From Vampirovibrio sp. (GTDB taxonomy: Bacteria; Cyanobacteriota; Vampirovibrionia; Vampirovibrionales; Vampirovibrionaceae), in NCBI GenBank assembly GCA_019634025.1, contig JAHQWC010000055.1:1-50024 (forward strand): a DNA stretch of 50,024 bases, read 5' to 3'. Made by a program: the position numbers and the translations under genes. Numbering within the stretch: the first letter of the stretch is position 1; each line of letters begins with the position of its first letter. This document shows positions 3,727-30,325 of the stretch, piece after piece. The notes under the pieces were generated by a model. That model searched no databases, was not told where the DNA came from, and worked only from the letters and a program-made list of their open reading frames with translations.

Positions 3727-4590
3727 TTAGGCCGTAGCACCTGCTGGCGTCTCTACCCGAATAAACTCGGGAATAATTTTTTCTTTCAAAACACCGGCGC
3801 CTTGGCCCATCCACAGCATCAGCTTGATGGCCTTTTTAATCTCATCATCCATGTTCAAGGTCATGTCATTCACATACATACCCACAAACTTATCGGCTTT
3901 TTTCCGGTCCAGATCCCGGGCAAACTGCATGGCGTAATCTAAGGCTTCTTCGCGGTGGGCTAAGCCGTATTCAACACTCCGTTTCAGGACACGGCCAATT
4001 TTCTGAATCATCTCCGGCCCCAAATCCTTGCGGATGGCGTTCCCACCCAGGGGCAGGGTCAAATTAGTGGTCTCAAACCACCATTCACCTAGGTCTACCA
4101 CTTTAAACAGATTCTCTTCAGCGTAGGTGAGCTGGCCTTCGTGGATAATCAAACCGGCTTCATATTCGCCAGCATGGACCTTTTCCATAATCTCATCAAA
4201 AGGCACCACTTCGGTTTTGACGTTAGGCTCCCAAATTTTCAGGGCCAGATAGGCAGAGGTCATCTCACCCGGCACCGCCACGGTTACCTCAGCTATATCG
4301 TCTTTGGTCATGGGTTTTTTGGAAATCAGCACCGGGCCATATTTATCGCCAATACTAGAGCCGCAGGTCAAAATGGCGTATTTGTCTTTCAGGTGCGCAT
4401 AGGCGTGAAAGGAGATGGCCGTCAGTTCATAGGTACCTTTCAACGCCTCCTGGTTCAGGGTTTCAATATCAGTGAGGTGATGACTAAACGTCAGACCCTC
4501 GGTATCCACCTTGTCGTTGGCCAAGGCATAAAACATAAAAGCATCATCAGAATCCGGGCTGTGCGCCACACGAATAACAGGGGTCGTCAT
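3727..4590 (-). CDS. mqnD: 1,4-dihydroxy-6-naphthoate synthase (MqnA/MqnD family), futalosine pathway
   Basis: HSPDSDDAFMFYAL, DIETLN, GLIIHEGQLTY, DLGEWW, LPLGGN, MYVN motifs. Confidence 0.9.
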   Translation of the reverse strand: MTTPVIRVAHSPDSDDAFMFYALANDKVDTEGLTFSHHLTDIETLNQEALKGTYELTAISFHAYAHLKDKYAILTCGSSIGDKYGPVLISKKPMTKDDIAEVTVAVPGEMTSAYLALKIWEPNVKTEVVPFDEIMEKVHAGEYEAGLIIHEGQLTYAEENLFKVVDLGEWWFETTNLTLPLGGNAIRKDLGPEMIQKIGRVLKRSVEYGLAHREEALDYAMQFARDLDRKKADKFVGMYVNDMTLNMDDEIKKAIKLMLWMGQGAGVLKEKIIPEFIRVETPAGATA

Positions 4591-16185: not shown

Positions 16186-17005
16186 TAGACAAGGTATCCA
16201 ATTGTTGTATCACTTGAGAAAATAGGGTGAGTGAGCTTTGATGCGCTTGGGTCCAGCCAAAATCCAGAGAGCGCGTGAAATAGCGTCGAAGTGTCGCCGG
16301 TGATATTTTACACCGATCCTCCGCCAGCCGCACCGCTTCTTCTAGGTGAGTACCGTCTGCAAAGAAAGCTTCGCGACTCTCACACAAGCGCTGGGTAACC
16401 TGTTGCAGGGTTTCAGCATTTGTCTGTGCCCAATCTTTTTGAGCCACCCACACCGCAAACACAAAAGGCAAACCGGTTTGCCGGAACCACAGGTCCGCTA
16501 AATCATAACAGTAATACCCTTCCTCCGGCAAAACATCCGCCATCATCAAAGCATGATCCCCAATAATTAAAGCATTTCCGGAAGATTCCAGTGCTGCCGC
16601 ATAATCGCCGGCAACATAGGATTTAAACCAAGGCCGAAAATCCACTTTCACAGACTGCTGTAGAAGGTGGGCCAGCAAAGCAATAGAGGTTTCTGAATCA
16701 TCCGGCACCATAATGGCAGGTAAGTCCAACAGGGTATGATTCATGGGATTTTTAGAGACAAACAACACACTTTCCACCGCCCCAGGAGAACTCACCGACA
16801 ACCCCGGCACCAAGAGGAGTTGGCGTTGGTGCCGCAAATAATGGGCGCTGGAGACGGGCGAGATTTCCAATTTACCCGCCGCCACAAACTGATTCAACGA
16901 TGCCGGAGATGCATACACTAAAGATTCCAGTTCGTTCGGCTGAAACAAATGATAAATGGGCAGGGTATTAATAAAAGAAATGGCGCCAATAGAAACCGGT
17001 CTCAC
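16127..17005 (-). CDS. mqnA: Chorismate dehydratase, futalosine pathway
   Basis: IGAISFINTLP, GAVESVL, SETS..L, LIIGDHAL, DLADLW...TGLPFVFAVW. Confidence 0.9.
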   Translation of the reverse strand: MRPVSIGAISFINTLPIYHLFQPNELESLVYASPASLNQFVAAGKLEISPVSSAHYLRHQRQLLLVPGLSVSSPGAVESVLFVSKNPMNHTLLDLPAIMVPDDSETSIALLAHLLQQSVKVDFRPWFKSYVAGDYAAALESSGNALIIGDHALMMADVLPEEGYYCYDLADLWFRQTGLPFVFAVWVAQKDWAQTNAETLQQVTQRLCESREAFFADGTHLEEAVRLAEDRCKISPATLRRYFTRSLDFGWTQAHQSSLTLFSQVIQQLDTLSNGSERDSYTFSRTSSAIPF

Positions 17006-21510: not shown

Positions 21511-21885
21511 CTATTTATTTTTTTGAACCAAATATATCGTACCCAGCAAGGCGGTTCCCAACAACAGTACCGTCAAAGTGGGACCTACTGATATAGCCGA
21601 AGGATTAGCTATATAGATGAGAGCCACTGCTGCAACAATATAAATACCGATAAATCGAGGCACTAAAAACGTCACGGCCAAAGCACCCAAAAAAGCCAAG
21701 ATAATGGCAAGTCCAAATATAGGTAGCTCTACCACACCGCTTAATACTAACGGCAATGACACCATAACCACAAACAAAGACCCAAAGAGGATAACCCCCC
21801 AAAATTCATGGAAAAACCACTTGGCTGTCGCCTCAGGGTCGCGGACGCCTTCTTCTTCACTTTCGTGGTGGGCCATCATCATCAT
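21511..21885 (-). CDS. Hypothetical membrane protein (about 4 TM)
   Basis: Hydrophobic ORF with AAGGAG RBS upstream. Confidence 0.7.
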   Translation of the reverse strand: MMMMAHHESEEEGVRDPEATAKWFFHEFWGVILFGSLFVVMVSLPLVLSGVVELPIFGLAIILAFLGALAVTFLVPRFIGIYIVAAVALIYIANPSAISVGPTLTVLLLGTALLGTIYLVQKNK

Positions 21886-22064: not shown

Positions 22065-22514
22065 TTAGCTAGATGCTTCTACAGCTTGACTTGCGGAACC
22101 AGTGGCGGCATCCGACGAATCAATGGTTTTTAAGTATTCCTGAAAATCGCCCACCATTTCCTGCAGCTTCTCGTATTCCAGCACAGATAGCCAATAGGCT
22201 TGAATACGTCGCTGATCGGTACTGGGTTTTATTTTCGGCATCCGGGTGCCCAGCAGGCGTTCCCGCAAAAACTTGTTGCCTTCCCGGTAATGGCAGTCTC
22301 CAATCCGGCAGCCACAGGCAAAGGTCCCGTCTGCACCATTTTTCAAGGCCGTTTCCAGCATAATGGGCTGAATCATCCCACTACAAGGCACCTTGATAAT
22401 CTGAACATTGGGATCATCTTTCAAGCAACCTTTTTCATCCAACTGATCCTTCAGCTCGACGCTCCGTTCACAGACCAGTCCGATGATTTTCTCTTTGTTT
22501 TCTGTTGAAGTCAT
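22065..22514 (-). CDS. MvhD/FlpD-like hydrogenase iron-sulfur subunit
   Basis: IIGLVC, VPCSG, GADG...GC..GDCHYREGN pattern of the MvhD/FlpD [2Fe-2S] family. Confidence 0.88.
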   Translation of the reverse strand: MTSTENKEKIIGLVCERSVELKDQLDEKGCLKDDPNVQIIKVPCSGMIQPIMLETALKNGADGTFACGCRIGDCHYREGNKFLRERLLGTRMPKIKPSTDQRRIQAYWLSVLEYEKLQEMVGDFQEYLKTIDSSDAATGSASQAVEASS

Positions 22515-22549: not shown

Positions 22550-23674
22550 TTATGAGGACGTCGTCGCCAGCGCGACTTTAATTTCTTCCAATACATCCGC
22601 TGATTCTCGACGGGGAATTTCAATGGCCTTAAAAGCACAGGCGCCTACACATAAACCGCAGTTAGAACACCGTCCGGCATCCACCACGGCTAAACGTTTA
22701 AAGCGAGTGTCATCATCCCGGTCCACCATCTCAATAGCTTCATAAGGGCAGTCATGGTAGCACAGGGAACATCCGGTACAGTTCTCAAACTTCACATGGG
22801 CAAACTGACCGCGCAAGGTCTTTTTATGCAGATAGGGTAGCCACAGCAGGGCGACAATCACACCCAAGGTCAACGCCCATACCCAACCGGCATCCCATCC
22901 TTTTACCGCTAGCCATTGGGGCCACATATACAACAGATCAAAGGAAATGGATTGAGAGAAAGCAGCCCTGTTCGGATCAGCGCCCAACTCTACCGGGAAG
23001 AACCCGCAAATCATAAATAAACCGCCCAGCAACAGCAGGTATAACGGCGCCGGAGCATCGGTGACCGGGCGGGTAATCCGCAGGTAATGCATCCATAAAA
23101 AGAACATCAACAACCCAGGAATCGCCAAGTGCAAAAACAGCAACCGGGTCAGGGTAAAGTCCACCATCTTGCCGCCGGGCATAAAAAACTCGGCCAATCC
23201 GGCCCCCACTAAGGGCAAGGCTCCCAGCAGGTTCACCGTCATGCTGGTCAGGTTCACCGCTTCCTGGTCCCAAATCAACAGGTAGCCGGTTAAACCCACC
23301 AGAAAGGTGATGGTTAACAAAATCACGCCGGTGAGCCACGGAATAATCCGGTATTCTCGATACCGATCCGTAAACCACACGCGCAACATGTGCAGCAACA
23401 CAAAAATCATCATGCCATCCGCTGCATAACGGTGGATACTACGAAATGCGTTTCCAAACGGAATCTGCTCGGTAATATATTTTACCGACGGATACGCCTT
23501 TGTCATGGTGGGCACGTAGTAGGCAAACAGGAGCAAGCCGGAAATAAACAGCGTCCAGATGAAAAAGTTCGGCAAGGCGCCATGGTAATAGAACGGATTG
23601 TATTTTTGAGAAAAGACCTTGTTCAAGCCTTTCTCAATCCACAGGGTAAAGGTTTGTAGCCGTTCCGTATACAT
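22550..23674 (-). CDS. Cytochrome b fused to a C-terminal 2x[4Fe-4S] ferredoxin domain
   Basis: Four heme His (H81, H95, H182, H196), GLTGYLLIWDQ; CTGCSLCYHDCP and CSNCGLCVGACA. Confidence 0.9.
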   Translation of the reverse strand: MYTERLQTFTLWIEKGLNKVFSQKYNPFYYHGALPNFFIWTLFISGLLLFAYYVPTMTKAYPSVKYITEQIPFGNAFRSIHRYAADGMMIFVLLHMLRVWFTDRYREYRIIPWLTGVILLTITFLVGLTGYLLIWDQEAVNLTSMTVNLLGALPLVGAGLAEFFMPGGKMVDFTLTRLLFLHLAIPGLLMFFLWMHYLRITRPVTDAPAPLYLLLLGGLFMICGFFPVELGADPNRAAFSQSISFDLLYMWPQWLAVKGWDAGWVWALTLGVIVALLWLPYLHKKTLRGQFAHVKFENCTGCSLCYHDCPYEAIEMVDRDDDTRFKRLAVVDAGRCSNCGLCVGACAFKAIEIPRRESADVLEEIKVALATTSS

Positions 23675-23706
23675 ATCTTACCGTTCCTCGTTTATAACTA
23701 TTGGGC

Positions 23707-24321
23707 TTACGATTTTTTCTGCCGGTCTGGCGCACGAGTCGCCAGCTCTTCTTCATGCCCCAGACTGATATAGGCAATGGCTGTCACCACAAAGATCAGA
23801 CCAATTCCCAAAAAGTAAGGCTTCAGCCCGGTAGAGATCATTTGCCGAACCGCTTCGGCATTATTCATCTGCTCAAGGGTCAGGTTAATGTTCCCTTCAC
23901 CACAGATCATCACCAGCATACCAAATAAGCCGGAGGCGAACACCAGGATTAACAGGACAACTTCTTTCATGGCAGATCCTTTTGCGGCAGATTCTAAGCG
24001 GGAAACCTCAACCTTAGTGGTCTTCCCCTCAACATCGCCATTCAGTTTCCGGTAAAGCGCCTCAAAGGGACCAAACTCCCGCTGAATCTTCCCTTTAATC
24101 TTCTCTTTAACATACCCGTCAAACATCAACACCAAAAACGTCACTGCTAAAAAGGCAATGGCACCTAACAAAGCCAACCCGTTCATATCTGTTGGCGTCA
24201 CGGTAAACGTTTTAAACGTCTGAAAGAAAAGCGACAGACCATAGGTAGAGAGTCCAAAGACCACCCACCATAAAAGGCTGTTCATGCCAGAGAAAGATTT
24301 TTTGTCCATCATACTCTTCAT
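23707..24321 (-). CDS. Hypothetical 4-TM protein inside the respiratory operon
   Basis: Two pairs of TM segments; 4-nt overlap with the upstream cytochrome b. Confidence 0.75.
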   Translation of the reverse strand: MKSMMDKKSFSGMNSLLWWVVFGLSTYGLSLFFQTFKTFTVTPTDMNGLALLGAIAFLAVTFLVLMFDGYVKEKIKGKIQREFGPFEALYRKLNGDVEGKTTKVEVSRLESAAKGSAMKEVVLLILVFASGLFGMLVMICGEGNINLTLEQMNNAEAVRQMISTGLKPYFLGIGLIFVVTAIAYISLGHEEELATRAPDRQKKS

Positions 24322-25778
24322 GCGCCAGCCTCCGCCATTTCCTGACGGGTTTTGCGCCGAGAGTCAACCATAATTAAGATTTCAGCAAGCACTACCTGAC
24401 CAATAGAGAAGGCCGCCCACAGCATACTCCAATATAGGTTCGCCGGGTTCCAACCTTCTGGCAGAGCACCACCACTAAAGCTATTAAACCAAACCATAAG
24501 CCAGTCTGCTGCAAAGACATGCCAGAAAAAGAGGTACCAAACCCCAAACAAGGCACAACCATACACCCAGGCACGTAGTGGAAGCTGCTGCTGGTATTGG
24601 CCCCAATGCCAGAACTGACCAATCCCCATAAAGAGGATCATATGGCCAAACCAAAACGGCGGATCTGTCTCAATATTGGATTTATTCATCACAATCATGG
24701 CCGAGAACACCAAAAACTCAACGGCGGCGGCAATCCCCACCATGGTAAAAATAGGCCGTTTCCACATGTTCCGCTCTTCGCCCCAATCCAGAAAAGCCAA
24801 ACCAATGGTAATTACCGGAATCCCTACGGTCCAAATTGTAGCCCAATAGGGATCCATATACCGAAGCATCTGATACAACGCCAGGAAGTACCAATCCGAC
24901 AGAATCGGCAACGGTGTCACCTCAGGGTTTGCCCGAGACCCTGTCTCCGCCGGAATCATAATGGCGGTAATCAATACCATGCCCAACATAATCAAAATGG
25001 CAGGCATCCGCAGGTTCAACCGCTTAAACCGGTTTTTGTAGAAGTACAATTCCGTCACTACCAGCAGGATCAGCGAAATCGTAAAGTGCAACGAATAAAA
25101 CCGGGTCATCGTCGCCTGCCCAATAGAGCTGCCCCCCAGTAAAATCTGAGAGGTGGTCATCCCCTGGTGGGTATAATCGCCAATCATTTTTGTTACCGCG
25201 CCAATGGCGTTGGGTAAAAACCAGGTGTTTTCCACCACAATACCTTCCCACGGCCAGTACCAGTATTTCGGGGTAATATCCAGGTACATCGGGAAGGTGG
25301 CAAAAATCTTGGTGGCCCAAAATGCCCGCTGGTTCCAGATCAACAGATAGCCCGTTAACCCGGAGTACATCGCTGCAAGTAGCAGAATAATAGACAATAC
25401 AAAGGTAAACTCACCTTTGTTCTTGTATTCGGCGTTAAAGTACATCCGATACACCCTTAACGTGGCGGCAATAATCATGCCGTCCCCCGCATATTTATGC
25501 AACCCTCTGAGGATCATTCCCAGTTTGTTTTCTGAAAAGCTGATAATGGAGTCAAAAGCTTGAGAGGTAGTCGGCAAATAAATGGCTACCAGAATCACAC
25601 CGCTGATAATGACCACCATCCAATACAGATAGTAAATACCCCCTAATTGGTACCAGGGAGACTCTTTTTGCAGGTCTGCCTTGGTCTCGTCAAAAAAATC
25701 AATCTTCGCCAACCGGTCCTGGACAAATTTCCAGCCGTCGGCAGGCGCTTGCTTTAATTGAGAAATGACACCTGCCAT
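24318..25778 (-). CDS. Cytochrome b (b6 plus subunit IV-like, unsplit) lacking the bH ligands
   Basis: RGLHKY, GLTGYLLIWNQRAFWA, TRFYSLH, ANPEVTPLPILSDWYF (PEWY equivalent). Confidence 0.9.
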   Translation of the reverse strand: MAGVISQLKQAPADGWKFVQDRLAKIDFFDETKADLQKESPWYQLGGIYYLYWMVVIISGVILVAIYLPTTSQAFDSIISFSENKLGMILRGLHKYAGDGMIIAATLRVYRMYFNAEYKNKGEFTFVLSIILLLAAMYSGLTGYLLIWNQRAFWATKIFATFPMYLDITPKYWYWPWEGIVVENTWFLPNAIGAVTKMIGDYTHQGMTTSQILLGGSSIGQATMTRFYSLHFTISLILLVVTELYFYKNRFKRLNLRMPAILIMLGMVLITAIMIPAETGSRANPEVTPLPILSDWYFLALYQMLRYMDPYWATIWTVGIPVITIGLAFLDWGEERNMWKRPIFTMVGIAAAVEFLVFSAMIVMNKSNIETDPPFWFGHMILFMGIGQFWHWGQYQQQLPLRAWVYGCALFGVWYLFFWHVFAADWLMVWFNSFSGGALPEGWNPANLYWSMLWAAFSIGQVVLAEILIMVDSRRKTRQEMAEAGA

Positions 25779-26444
25779 CTAGGAAATCCCTCCTGCCTCA
25801 ACTTTGGTCACCACCAGCTTATTTGCAGCGGTGTCCACATCCATTTCAAAAATCCGAGGTGGCCGTGGCGCAGGGCCACTAACAACAGCGCCACGAATGT
25901 CACCGAGATCCGTTCCGGTTGCGCCTTCCTGCAGAGGATCAAACACACTGAAGTGGCACGGACATGCAAACAGCGGGTTTTTGGCTAACGGATAGTTATA
26001 ATCCACCGCTTTCGCCGGATCCGTTAAAAAGTTGAACACACAGCCCATGTGTGGACAAATGCGACTCACAGCATGAAAGACTTTTTCGCCACCCTCATCT
26101 GGCAGCCGAACCACGAACCCTGGAATATTAATAGCTTGGAAGCCTTTAAACGTATACTCTCTGCTTTTCTGGCCAAAGGTAAACGTTTGGTAAGACCACG
26201 GTGTCGGAAAATCATCCAGCGAGAACACAATGTCCCGTTCCCGAACCGGTAAATCCGGATTACTAAAGAGGCCACCGCCCCCTTTCCATTCTAAAGGACT
26301 GCCTTTAAAGCTAAATTTGGTCAACGTCTCGCCAATAGGCCCGGCACTGGGCCGCAGATAGCGTACCAGCGGAGAGATAAACAGGCCAATGGCGCCCAAC
26401 AACGGCAGGCCAAACAATATTTTCAAAAACGCTCGGCGATCCAT
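25779..26444 (-). CDS. Rieske [2Fe-2S] subunit of a cytochrome bc-type complex
   Basis: Tat-like RRAFLK anchor; CPHMGC and CPCHFS boxes; GPAPRP. Confidence 0.93.
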   Translation of the reverse strand: MDRRAFLKILFGLPLLGAIGLFISPLVRYLRPSAGPIGETLTKFSFKGSPLEWKGGGGLFSNPDLPVRERDIVFSLDDFPTPWSYQTFTFGQKSREYTFKGFQAINIPGFVVRLPDEGGEKVFHAVSRICPHMGCVFNFLTDPAKAVDYNYPLAKNPLFACPCHFSVFDPLQEGATGTDLGDIRGAVVSGPAPRPPRIFEMDVDTAANKLVVTKVEAGGIS

Positions 26445-27756: not shown

Positions 27757-27927
27757 CTAGTCTTCATCCTTTAGCATTGCATACTTTGCCTGTTCCAAGT
27801 TCTCCAACCGGCCCGTGCCGGACGCCCAAAACAGAGCGATTACCGCCATCAGAAAAAACAATCCGCAGATAAAGAAGGCGGCAATGTAGCCGGGACCAAT
27901 TCCACCAGAAAGACAACTCGGGCACAT
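27757..27927 (-). CDS. ccoS: cbb3-type oxidase assembly protein CcoS/FixS (not in ORF track)
   Basis: Manual translation MCPSCLSGGIGPGYIAAFFICGLFFLMAVIALFWASGTGRLENLEQAKYAMLKDED*; ATG overlaps the ccoO stop (TAATG). Confidence 0.78.
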   Translation of the reverse strand: MCPSCLSGGIGPGYIAAFFICGLFFLMAVIALFWASGTGRLENLEQAKYAMLKDED

Positions 27928-28895
27928 TAGTGAGGTCGTCCTCCGCCGTATTGATACGCGCCATGATCGGCGCCCAGGTTTTCAATATATTTGTAGTTAT
28001 CATCCAGCTTATTGGGATCATCCAATTGGCTAAATTCCGTCACCTCTACCTCACCGGCAGCAGCGCTACCGTCGTTTGGCAAGGTTTTCAAGAAAGCGAC
28101 CAGATACAACATATCTTCATCGCTCAACGATTTTTTCCACCGGGGCATGCGAGTCCCAGCCACACCTTCAGCAACCCGCCAATACCACATATCGTTGGAA
28201 TAGGCGGCATAGTAAGGCCGGGTAAAATTGGCCGGTTTTTTCGCCATGGTAGCGCTTACAGGACCATTACCTTTGCCCTGCACCCCGTGGCACACAGCAC
28301 AATTTTGCATATAGATCCCGCGACCCGCATTGGCGGCGGCAGAAGAATCCACATCCACCAATTCACTAATCACGTGATATTTATCGCGATATTCTTGCGG
28401 CCCGTTAATCCAGTGCGGTTGTTTCCGTTTTGCACCCAGAGTTTGCAGATAGGCAATCAAGTCACTCATATCATCATGACTCAGATAACTAAAGGAGGGC
28501 ATAATGGATCCCGGCTTCACGGCGCGAGGGTTCACATGGTGCGCCCAATGCCAAGAATCGGGGTACTTACCACCGATGTTAGACAAATCCGGACCCGTCC
28601 GCTCCGTGCCTAAAACGTGAGGCGTTTCATGTACATAATCCCCAGCAGCCACCATCTCGCCGGTTTCACGATCTTGATACCGGACAAACTGGGTGTGGCA
28701 GTAAAAGCAACCTTCCCGCCGATAAACATTCCGCCCCCGCAACACGGCAGGATCTTCCTGCTCGTAGTTGGTAGCCACCTCACTGGCTTCGGGCTGAAAC
28801 TTCAGGTAGGGCAAGTACACCGTCACCACAATAATGGTTACAAATACCAGGGCGATATAGGCGCCGGCCACTAAATAATTAAGTCGTTTTTCCAT
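27927..28895 (-). CDS. ccoO: cbb3-type cytochrome c oxidase subunit II with an extra heme c domain
   Basis: GRNVYRREGCFYCHTQFVR, GTERTGPDL, PGSIMP; second CAVCH domain. Confidence 0.92.
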   Translation of the reverse strand: MEKRLNYLVAGAYIALVFVTIIVVTVYLPYLKFQPEASEVATNYEQEDPAVLRGRNVYRREGCFYCHTQFVRYQDRETGEMVAAGDYVHETPHVLGTERTGPDLSNIGGKYPDSWHWAHHVNPRAVKPGSIMPSFSYLSHDDMSDLIAYLQTLGAKRKQPHWINGPQEYRDKYHVISELVDVDSSAAANAGRGIYMQNCAVCHGVQGKGNGPVSATMAKKPANFTRPYYAAYSNDMWYWRVAEGVAGTRMPRWKKSLSDEDMLYLVAFLKTLPNDGSAAAGEVEVTEFSQLDDPNKLDDNYKYIENLGADHGAYQYGGGRPH

Positions 28896-28927: not shown

Positions 28928-30325
28928 CTATACGTAAGCCATCCCGGTGGGGGAAGCTGGGATCGGTTCATAATTTTTGGAGAATACCGTTTTGTAGATG
29001 TTGAACATAAACAAGATTTGACCCAGGACAATCATCACACCGGATAAAAACCGAACAAACATGTAAGGCTCTAATTCCATGCCCCACTGATCCACCGGCA
29101 AGGCAAAGTGCCATCCGGCAGCCTGTACCAGCCCGGCAATGGTCAAGGCCAGCATCATGATGATCCATCCCAAGAAACTCAGCCAGAAGTGCCACACCGC
29201 CAGCTGCTTACTAAAGACCTTGCGTCCGGTGACCTTGGGAATAATGTAGTAAACCGCCGCAAAAACAATAAAGGAGAACGTCGCCAACAACGCCATGTGC
29301 GCGTGCCCCACCACCCAGTTACTGAAGTGAATATACCAGTTGATTCCCCGCGTTGCCTGAAACGGACCCTGAATACAGGTGAGCAAATACCCCAGCCCTG
29401 AGGCCATGACAAAGCGAAGCGGCACATGATCGGCCGCCAAAGACCATTTACCCTTCATGGTCATAAAAAAGTTGGTCAATACGGTAAACACCGGCACCAA
29501 CAAAAACACACTAGAAATAACCGCGATGGCTTTCAACCATTCCGGCACGGGTGATTGCAAAATATGGTGCGTTCCGGTCGGCGCATAAAACATTCCAATG
29601 GTCCAAAATCCAATCATAGACAAGGTATGACTGTACAACGGATTTCCAGTAAATCGAGGGATCAGGTAGTACAGAATCCCAACGCCACCCACGGTAAACC
29701 ACATACCCAAAATATTGTGACCATAAAACCAACCGGCAATGGCATCATTCAACCCGTCAAACTGCACAAACGCCCGGTTCCCAACCACATACACAATAGG
29801 AAACCAAAATAACGCGCCCAAAATGTACCACAGGGTCACGTACCATTTTTTCTCAGGGCCGGACAACACGGTTTTATAAACGTTAATCCCAGTCAAAATT
29901 AACCCGGCTAACACCATCCAGTCAAAAATGCCTTGTAGCTCTGCGTACTCTCTGGCTTCGGTGTAACCATTCATAATAGAGAGCGCGCCCAGACCCACCA
30001 GCAGGTTCCACACCACCATGGTCACATTGCCTAAGCGTTCAGACCAAAGCCGCTTACTACCGGACAGCACTGTTCCCAAAAAGAACATACAGCCCACATA
30101 ACCCATGGACAGCCAACCAATAAGAACCCCATGAGTATGGACCGGCCGTAACCGGCCAAAGGATAACTGCGGCACTTCATGGATCAAATCCGGCCAGGTC
30201 ATTAACGCGCCGGCGGTTAGACCAATCGTGGTTCCAAACACCAACCAGAAAATCGCAGAAATTAAAAAGTTCCGACTCGCACTAAATGGCTCGTCACTAA
30301 AAACAGCGTTCAAAAATCTATTCAT
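28928..30325 (-). CDS. ccoN: cbb3-type (C-family) heme-copper oxidase subunit I
   Basis: SFGRLRPVHT, REYAE, WFYGHN, GTHH, WVVGHAH. Confidence 0.93.
   Translation of the reverse strand: MNRFLNAVFSDEPFSASRNFLISAIFWLVFGTTIGLTAGALMTWPDLIHEVPQLSFGRLRPVHTHGVLIGWLSMGYVGCMFFLGTVLSGSKRLWSERLGNVTMVVWNLLVGLGALSIMNGYTEAREYAELQGIFDWMVLAGLILTGINVYKTVLSGPEKKWYVTLWYILGALFWFPIVYVVGNRAFVQFDGLNDAIAGWFYGHNILGMWFTVGGVGILYYLIPRFTGNPLYSHTLSMIGFWTIGMFYAPTGTHHILQSPVPEWLKAIAVISSVFLLVPVFTVLTNFFMTMKGKWSLAADHVPLRFVMASGLGYLLTCIQGPFQATRGINWYIHFSNWVVGHAHMALLATFSFIVFAAVYYIIPKVTGRKVFSKQLAVWHFWLSFLGWIIMMLALTIAGLVQAAGWHFALPVDQWGMELEPYMFVRFLSGVMIVLGQILFMFNIYKTVFSKNYEPIPASPTGMAYV

Follow-up and report, generated by a model that had tools for sequence, protein, structure and literature searches.

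Two cytochromes b with complementary losses in an oxidase-linked operon of Vampirovibrio sp.: a candidate asymmetric Rieske/cytochrome b complex

Introduction

How could a cytochrome b that has lost the ligands of heme bH dispose of the second electron of quinol oxidation? The question is raised by an operon on the minus strand of the window, the whole stretch of 50,024 nucleotides (nt) of Vampirovibrio sp. DNA analyzed here (contig JAHQWC010000055.1 positions 1-50,024, assembly GCA_019634025.1). Two of its nine genes encode cytochromes b, termed b-1 and b-2, with complementary losses. As predicted from sequence, b-1 clearly keeps the Qo side and heme bL and has a dismantled bH site; b-2, with equal clarity, is predicted to keep both hemes and to combine a degraded Qo side with a cytoplasmic 2x[4Fe-4S] domain, and an MvhD gene lies next to it. 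The chances appear about even that the nine genes specify one respiratory assembly, in which a cbb3-type oxidase would be joined to an asymmetric Rieske/cytochrome b complex with an electron path across the dimer. The two cytochrome b genes are the following.

24318-25778, minus strand: cytochrome b-1, 486 amino acids (aa), PF00033 and PF00032, with a C-terminal membrane extension
22550-23674, minus strand: cytochrome b-2 with a C-terminal 2x[4Fe-4S] domain (residues ~290-355), 374 aa, PF00033 and 4Fe-4S dicluster families

Loss of the canonical heme bH ligands in cytochrome b-1

Cytochrome b-1 matches the Pfam families PF00033 (E 1.2e-24) and PF00032 (E 1.1e-8). The four axial histidines of a cytochrome b come as pairs 14 residues apart in helices B and D; in b-1 these pairs read H94/R108 and H231/Y245. 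The bL ligands, H94 (CAT, 25497-25499) and H231, are present, and both bH positions are occupied by other residues, R108 (AGG, 25455-25457) and Y245 (TAC). The Qo motif is S294-D295-W296-Y297. All residues and codons of b-1 and b-2 named in a preliminary description of this DNA agree with the translations and a codon look-up.

The loss of the bH histidines, on which that description had built its reading, is conserved among homologues. Of 120 aligned b-1 sequences, 99 have R at position 108 and the other 21 have K; at position 245, 119 have Y and one has W. H231 and the SDW of the Qo motif are present in all 120, and H94 in 119 (plus one gap). In a set of 110 rows, comprising the window and 109 loci, the residues at positions 94, 108, 231 and 245 read HRHY in 78, HRHR in 19, HKHY in seven, HRHH in two and HKHH in one, and three rows are cut. 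The helix-B bH position is thereby R or K, never His, in 108/108 covered rows, and SDWY is kept in 109/110. A pattern so conserved is not a product of chance. A decaying pseudogene or an assembly error was also considered for b-1. It was rejected, since the gene has an open frame with confirmed codons, the pattern is found in 109 other loci and many columns are invariant.

The same picture extends to distant relatives. An exhaustive profile-free search returned 2604 relatives of b-1 at E <= 0.001, only 26 of them at E <= 1e-30, and the best 150 of the 2604 were taken into an alignment of 152 sequences. Canonical HHHH is found in 102 of these. All b-1-like representatives carry R or K at the bH position of helix B. 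At that of helix D they have Y, R, H, F or W, with F and W in the more distant ones, and their Qo motif is SDWY, changing to PDWY/ADWY in those furthest away. The surroundings of the missing heme have changed as well. In a comparison of 17 b-1-family with 101 four-His representatives, b-1 has replaced W126, G129, R122 and P235, at which the canonical proteins have 99% W, 100% G, 94% R and 98% P, and the b-1 family has gained E243 and R253, both invariant. The W, G and R positions presumably line the heme bH site. We read b-1 as a protein whose n-side has probably been rebuilt without heme bH, rather than one in decay.

Could b-1 instead bind a second heme through unusual ligands, giving an ordinary four-heme dimer? 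In catalase, a Tyr phenolate supported by Arg is the heme ligand, and a Tyr245 phenolate supported by Arg108, or a Lys, might serve in the same way. Within Vampirovibrionales the near-constant Y245 (119/120) and the conserved R/K108 and E243 would suit this arrangement. It is nevertheless improbable, as the helix-D position varies (of the 110 rows, 107 are fully covered, with Y in 78+7, R in 19 and H in three; F/W occur further out) and b-1 no longer has the W, G and R of the canonical pocket.

Two other regions of b-1 deserve mention. An acidic stretch at its cytoplasmic N-terminus, D27-x-F29-D30-E31 (window 25686-25700), is invariant in Vampirovibrionia and in the distant set and may be a docking site for an iron-sulfur domain or for MvhD. 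Residues ~163-205 (window 25164-25290) form an aromatic-rich insertion in the helix C-D loop, on the periplasmic side near the Qo/Rieske docking region; it is missing from most b-1-family representatives, with gaps in ~88% of the 17.

Cytochrome b-2 and its iron-sulfur branch

Cytochrome b-2 matches PF00033 (E 2.3e-30) and has no PF00032 match in Pfam. All four axial histidines (H81, H95, H182 and H196) are present and are invariant in 120/120 aligned b-2 sequences; in the 110-row set, HHHH is found in 78/78 complete b-2 rows, and 10 rows are cut by contig ends. The canonical pocket residues W113, G116, R109 and P186 are likewise kept. The n-side is strongly conserved, with N26-P35 and H196-V204 invariant or nearly so. 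No Qi signature is identifiable in the b-2 sequence, and it has no heme-cn cysteine.

At the position of PEWY the alignment places F245-D246-L247-L248(-Y249). The preliminary description regarded this region as degenerate, which holds for the present lineage (FDLL) but is less complete across the family: D246 is kept in 105/120 aligned sequences, and other b-2 lineages have xDW[FL][YF], as in VDWFY and IDWFF, or xD[AVL][WL][YF].

The protein has six hydrophobic helices, corresponding by homology to helices A-F (b6-like). With six helices, the C-terminal iron-sulfur domain would lie in the cytoplasm, next to heme bH. Its eight cluster cysteines are invariant among 93 aligned sequences. The ferredoxin domain of b-2 and the MvhD protein together align collinearly with the C-terminal part (571-774) of the HdrA2 model, which corresponds to an electron-transfer pair in heterodisulfide reductase (Hdr), so the two are probably an electron-transfer pair here also. 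A search of the organism's own genome with the HdrA2 model matched only positions 571-774, plus short weak pieces.

Operon organization and co-inheritance

The remaining seven genes of the operon, in gene order from the oxidase, are listed below; b-1 and b-2 lie on either side of the 204-aa membrane protein.

28928-30325, minus strand: CcoN-like heme-copper oxidase subunit I, 465 aa, PF00115 (E 1e-78), operon gene 1
27927-28895, minus strand: fusion of CcoO (FixO) with a c-type cytochrome domain, 322 aa, PF02433 (E 5.5e-33) and PF00034/PF13442
26448-27551, minus strand: membrane-anchored cytochrome c (diheme c), 367 aa, PF13442/PF00034, two CxxCH motifs (CLSCH and CAVCH)
25779-26444, minus strand: Rieske [2Fe-2S] protein, 221 aa, PF00355, CPHMGC and CPCH boxes
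23707-24321, minus strand: membrane protein, 204 aa, overlapping the end of b-1 by 4 nt
22065-22514, minus strand: MvhD/FlpD-type iron-sulfur protein, 149 aa, PF02662 (E 1.1e-24)
21511-21885, minus strand: small hydrophobic protein, 124 aa, the last gene before rpsP

Against NCBIfam models, the CcoN-like subunit scores 254 bits with TIGR00780 ccoN (cut-off 583 bits) and the CcoO subunit 102 with the ccoO equivalog (cut-off 201); the membrane-anchored cytochrome c has a weak QcrC-like match to NF050122. The Rieske protein has a twin-arginine-like N-terminus, and its gene adjoins that of b-1. From Rieske through b-1, the 204-aa protein and b-2 to MvhD, the successive gaps are 0, -4, 32 and 35 nt. 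The 204-aa protein has no Pfam or NCBIfam match; tblastn locates it in the gap that separates b-1 from b-2 at most genome loci, and a small open reading frame with hydrophobic segments fills the same gap (500-970 nt) in 9/10 divergent loci inspected. The 124-aa hydrophobic protein, which also has no Pfam or NCBIfam family match, follows MvhD after 179 nt and is found by tblastn in many, not all, genome loci. Its membership of the operon is uncertain.

The gene order of cbb3 oxidase, diheme c, Rieske, b-1, small membrane protein, b-2-ferredoxin and MvhD recurs across loci. Twenty-nine loci come from named genome assemblies (Vampirovibrionales, Vampirovibrio chlorellavorus and "Melainabacteria"), the V. 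chlorellavorus loci L016 and L017 among the carriers of the operon. Oxidase, cytochrome c and Rieske genes stand upstream of b-1 in 28/29, the remaining locus being cut by a contig end. In 28 loci at least 3.5 kb of sequence is available downstream of b-1, and in 26 of them b-2-ferredoxin and MvhD come next. When metagenome contigs were scanned with an alignment of distant b-1-like proteins, 80 further loci emerged, 41 with enough downstream sequence: b-2-ferredoxin lies downstream of b-1 in all 41 and MvhD in 40. These loci share the upstream oxidase, cytochrome c and Rieske genes at a b-1 identity of 40-92% to the query set, and one b-1 lineage has members that their sources name Holophagaceae.

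Co-occurrence points the same way. In a sample of 301 genomes of the class, with the two lists compared by eye, b-1 is found in 163 and b-2 in 158: both in 154, b-1 only in nine, b-2 only in four and neither in 134. Two of the b-1-only matches are weak (E ~1e-21); of the other 11 discordant genomes, ten fall short of 90% completeness and one, G271 at 92%, is split into ~240 contigs. One family, with 99 genomes, has neither gene. A single in-frame TAG occurs in one b-1 and one b-2 match of other family genomes (G136:C3 and G096:C6).

In a FastTree phylogeny of helices A-D (92 sequences, 200 columns, midpoint-rooted), all b-1-like sequences fall into one clade (support 0.97). The b-2 sequences form another (support 1.0) together with three four-His representatives and a fusion protein from a Defluviimonas plasmid (NZ_CP156080; L119 5513-11484), a 526-aa cytochrome b-2x[4Fe-4S]-MvhD chain with four His and an LDWF motif. 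The branching order is similar inside the two clades. Recent paralogy of b-1 and b-2 was considered and is ruled out by their ~27% identity (tblastn) and separate clades. Separate clades with similar internal branching indicate an old pairing and no recent duplication. Judged by these distributions, b-1 and b-2 clearly appear to have been co-inherited as a unit across distant lineages.

The Defluviimonas fusion follows genes for a heme-copper oxidase subunit I, heme O synthase and an SCO protein, and a hemerythrin gene comes after it.

Possible pairing of b-1 with b-2

The preliminary description proposed that b-1 and b-2 form a heterodimer. A co-fold was therefore computed with b-1 (residues 1-486), b-2 (residues 1-290) and three hemes, from alignments built in this analysis; the calibration set was run without riding ligands. 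The interaction prediction score from aligned errors (ipSAE) is 0.65, versus 0.01 for the best of three controls, a mark reached by 58/80 solved complexes and 2/110 mismatched pairs. The runs have at least 94% of contacts in common, with a partner predicted local distance difference test (pLDDT) score of at least 81. Helix A of b-1 packs on helix D of b-2, and helix A of b-2 on helix D of b-1, which is the canonical cytochrome b dimer interface. Covariation was computed over 68 non-redundant b-1/b-2 pairs, in which column pairs are not independent and phylogeny is uncorrected. Among the 500 inter-protein column pairs that covary most, 19 lie within the blocks of the A-D' interface versus 4.15 expected, a block-level enrichment that argues weakly for the interface. 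The heterodimer and a path from bL to bL are plausible: the complementary pattern, the common operon and genome and the co-fold at the canonical interface speak for the proposal, but separate assemblies remain an alternative to it.

Several observations weigh against the pairing or against a b-1 with a single heme. The co-fold score may reflect the predictor's memory, because every solved bc complex is a homodimer with this same fold. Control blocks for the wrong pairing (A-A/D-D) are also enriched, with 9 of the top 500 versus 4.3, and among the 25 best-listed contacts the 15 usable ones have no excess covariation (mean -0.004, reached by 56% of random sets). A few b-1 lineages do have His at the helix-D position (HRHH/HKHH, 3/110), and ligation of a heme by Tyr or Lys is conceivable in b-1. 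The two genes can also be found apart. In 2/28 genome loci (L024 and L025, from two Vampirovibrionales genomes), b-2 is not adjacent to b-1: the operon ends after the small membrane protein, and b-2 (67-68% identity) lies on another contig (L035 and L036), so the pair is separable in the genome without loss. No Rieske or b-1 gene is found near the Defluviimonas fusion, and b-2-type proteins can therefore exist alone.

This last case keeps alive the alternative of two separate complexes: a b-1 homodimer with Rieske and cytochrome c that runs no Q-cycle and holds bL as a structural element or dead end, and an independent wire of b-2, its ferredoxin domain and MvhD that links the quinone pool or an oxidase with the cytoplasm. 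Besides the unlinked b-2 genes, it gains from b-2-type fusions that stand beside heme-copper oxidases without b-1 or Rieske, and from Atlas clusters of cytochrome b and Fer4 (with or without FlpD) in Pseudomonadota, Nitrospinota, Bacteroidota and Armatimonadota. It is nonetheless unlikely, at something like one chance in six. The second electron would have no outlet in a b-1 homodimer; moreover, near-perfect co-occurrence and synteny across lineages, parallel branching of the b-1 and b-2 trees and a co-fold that passes its controls all speak against independence.

Proposed electron path

In the proposed heterodimer, b-1 and b-2 would pair at the normal cytochrome b dimer interface and form a one-to-one assembly with the Rieske protein, diheme c and the cbb3 oxidase. 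Menaquinol would be oxidized only at the Qo site of b-1. The first electron would pass from Rieske to diheme c, cbb3 and finally O2; the second would pass from bL of b-1 to bL of b-2 and on to bH of b-2, and from there it may continue through the [4Fe-4S] clusters and the MvhD cluster to a cytoplasmic partner. The heterodimer is favored because a b-1 homodimer leaves the second electron without an outlet and b-2 offers the missing part. It is also favored because engineered cross-inactivated bc1 dimers turn over by bL-bL transfer, according to the accessible portion of PMC4330944.

The quinol is likely menaquinone-derived. Two genes of the PF02621 family (MqnA/MqnD, futalosine route) lie in the window, at 3814-4575 and 16208-16993, both on the minus strand, which makes menaquinone the likely substrate and fits the Asp-type Qo motif; such motifs correlate with menaquinone, as stated in the available part of PMC4122944. 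menA was not found in the organism's own genome, which is 78.7% complete.

Where does the low-potential electron go? The preliminary description termed the arrangement a split Q-cycle. The complementary losses on which this rested are conserved, but nothing shows a Qi site in b-2, so that the electron may leave the quinone cycle altogether. An exit to the cytoplasm, and with it an obligate bifurcation without Qi recycling, is weakly favored because, once b-1 has lost bH, the electron has no other route by which to return to the quinone pool. In its full form, the proposal describes a natural obligate heterodimer in which a bL-bL "bus bar" is the sole low-potential path and electrons are exported via bH, two [4Fe-4S] clusters and MvhD without Qi recycling. 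As a whole this is tentative and rather doubtful. If true, it would be a quinone-based bifurcation with two different end acceptors, driven by cbb3 and kept in the cyanobacterial sister class and in other phyla.

MvhD was found in a single copy in the organism's genome, and in that 78.7% complete sequence no partner for it was found among CCG/HdrB, the HdrA flavin domain and [NiFe] hydrogenase. By reasoning, an electron from menaquinol can hardly reach ferredoxin-level acceptors inside the cell under membrane potential. One rubredoxin is encoded in the genome.

The main directional alternative keeps the heterodimer and reverses the cytoplasmic branch: a low-potential donor such as reduced ferredoxin would feed bH of b-2 through MvhD and the iron-sulfur clusters, and this heme would reduce menaquinone at a Qi-type site, so that a cross-dimer Q-cycle is combined with a ferredoxin:quinone reductase. 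A ferredoxin-to-Qi route of similar kind has been proposed for cytochrome b6f in cyclic flow. By reasoning, the reaction is downhill. The genome has two 2-oxoacid:ferredoxin oxidoreductase genes, and NuoF was not found in it at its present completeness; b-1 and b-2 both score best against cyanobacterial b6 among solved chains, and the n-side of b-2 is highly conserved. Yet such an inlet leaves the loss of bH in b-1 without a reason, b-2 has neither an identifiable Qi signature nor the heme-cn cysteine, and the operon encodes no donor protein. Perhaps one chance in five can be allowed it.

A further alternative runs the entire path outward, from a cytoplasmic donor through MvhD, the iron-sulfur clusters, bH and bL of b-2 and bL of b-1 to a quinone bound at Qo, and then through Rieske to cbb3. 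Such a complex would serve as an oxidase linked to ferredoxin or NAD(P)H, with the quinone pool left out of the path. In favor of it, the module is always found with a terminal oxidase; this holds even for the Defluviimonas fusion, which has no Rieske and for which a donor role is the simplest reading. Against this, b-1 has invariant Qo residues of the type usual for quinol oxidation (SDWY 109/110), menaquinone synthesis genes lie in the same window, and the short circuit from bL to Rieske is normally suppressed. This outward flow is very improbable, the least likely of the alternatives set out here.

The organism also has an ordinary complex III. On another contig of its genome (C88; L001 841-3536), the genes for a canonical Rieske protein and a 362-aa cytochrome b with four His and PEWY lie immediately upstream of one that resembles subunit I of cytochrome bd oxidase, so that this complex stands beside a bd-type oxidase.

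Implications

To our knowledge, electron crossing between the monomers of bc dimers has long been argued and has so far been tested only with engineered enzymes. If the proposed path is true, a natural enzyme unable to work otherwise would settle the principle of bL-bL crossing and give a system in which to measure it. A cytoplasmic exit, if true, would make this an enzyme of quinone-based bifurcation whose outlet lies outside the Q-cycle, a design that as far as we know has been proposed mainly for anammox complexes. In aerobic members of Vampirovibrionia, the sister class of oxygenic cyanobacteria that lacks photosynthesis, the asymmetric complex appears to serve as the main oxidase-linked complex III, and so bears on the rise of respiration in their relatives. 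There is also a lesson for surveys: those that discard cytochromes b without four His miss the entire b-1 clade.

Comparison with known systems

The canonical bc1, b6f and menaquinol bc complexes share with the present system the Rieske protein, the four-helix bundle, an acidic Qo motif (SDWY here, PDWY/PEWY there) and the predicted dimer interface. They differ in that the two b subunits are dissimilar here: b-1 is without bH ligands or pocket residues, and b-2 is without helices G-H and a PF00032 match and bears iron-sulfur clusters. Among solved structures, only canonical cytochromes b/b6 and generic ferredoxin domains match b-1 and b-2.

Coupling of a diheme membrane b protein to cytoplasmic iron-sulfur clusters is known from NarI-NarH and from QmoC/QmoB(MvhD), and the bifurcating Rieske/cytochrome b complexes of anammox bacteria have been proposed to pass a low-potential electron from Qo to a cytoplasmic acceptor. 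Folds of the NarI/HdrE type, or the subunit sets, differ from those of the b-1/b-2 system, and we know of no bL-only partner subunit in NarI-NarH, Qmo or the anammox complexes. From the bifurcating Mvh/Hdr systems only MvhD is present, and the HdrA flavin domain, CCG domain and [NiFe] large subunit were not found in the 78.7% complete genome.

The iron-sulfur branch has closer relatives. Fusions of cytochrome b, 4Fe4S and MvhD (the "PDWF-FeS" clade) were noted by Kao and Hunte in 2014, as the available part of PMC4122944 records, and b-2 with MvhD shares their domain set of cytochrome b, 2x[4Fe-4S] and MvhD/FlpD. This likeness is drawn from the domain set and from the Defluviimonas cytochrome b-Fer4-FlpD fusion (35% identity with b-2 over 95%), which groups with b-2 in the tree. 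Unlike that clade, MvhD is here a separate gene, the motif is FDLL, and the pairing with Rieske and a bH-less b-1 is absent from the portion of the paper that was accessible. The same portion describes a survey of Qo motifs that dropped every sequence without four His before analysis.

The locus itself belongs to a kind noted before. "Complex III-IV" operons, with petB/petC-like genes beside a C-family oxidase, have been described in aerobic Melainabacteria and annotated as b6f-like subunits only (PMC6349859, available text), and b6f-like genes in these organisms were noted in the available parts of both PMC6349859 and PMC4451040. Within those parts, PMC6349859 makes no mention of two b subunits, missing ligands, a ferredoxin fusion or MvhD, nor PMC4451040 of the b subunits, ligands or iron-sulfur fusion. 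A term search of the accessible text of a cytochrome b phylogenomics study (PMC5600118) found neither Melainabacteria nor 4Fe-4S. No description of a bH-less cytochrome b paired with a cytochrome b-ferredoxin protein was found in the available portions of these and other sources (including PMC3578206 and PMC11214002), whose supplements may hold alignments; within the limits of this search, the asymmetric b-1/b-2 pairing is undescribed.

The nearest parallel to the proposed mechanism is man-made. In an engineered bc1 with two fused cytochromes b, one half was inactivated at Qo and its partner at bH, and the enzyme turned over via bL-bL transfer, with a crossing on the millisecond scale (PMC4330944, accessible portion). 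As far as that portion goes, the construct resembles the system proposed here in its one working Qo, its working bH on the other half and its crossing from bL to bL. It differs as a laboratory product of identical or near-identical halves that ends at Qi, whereas the b-1/b-2 pair would be natural and ancient, with bH leading on to iron-sulfur clusters.

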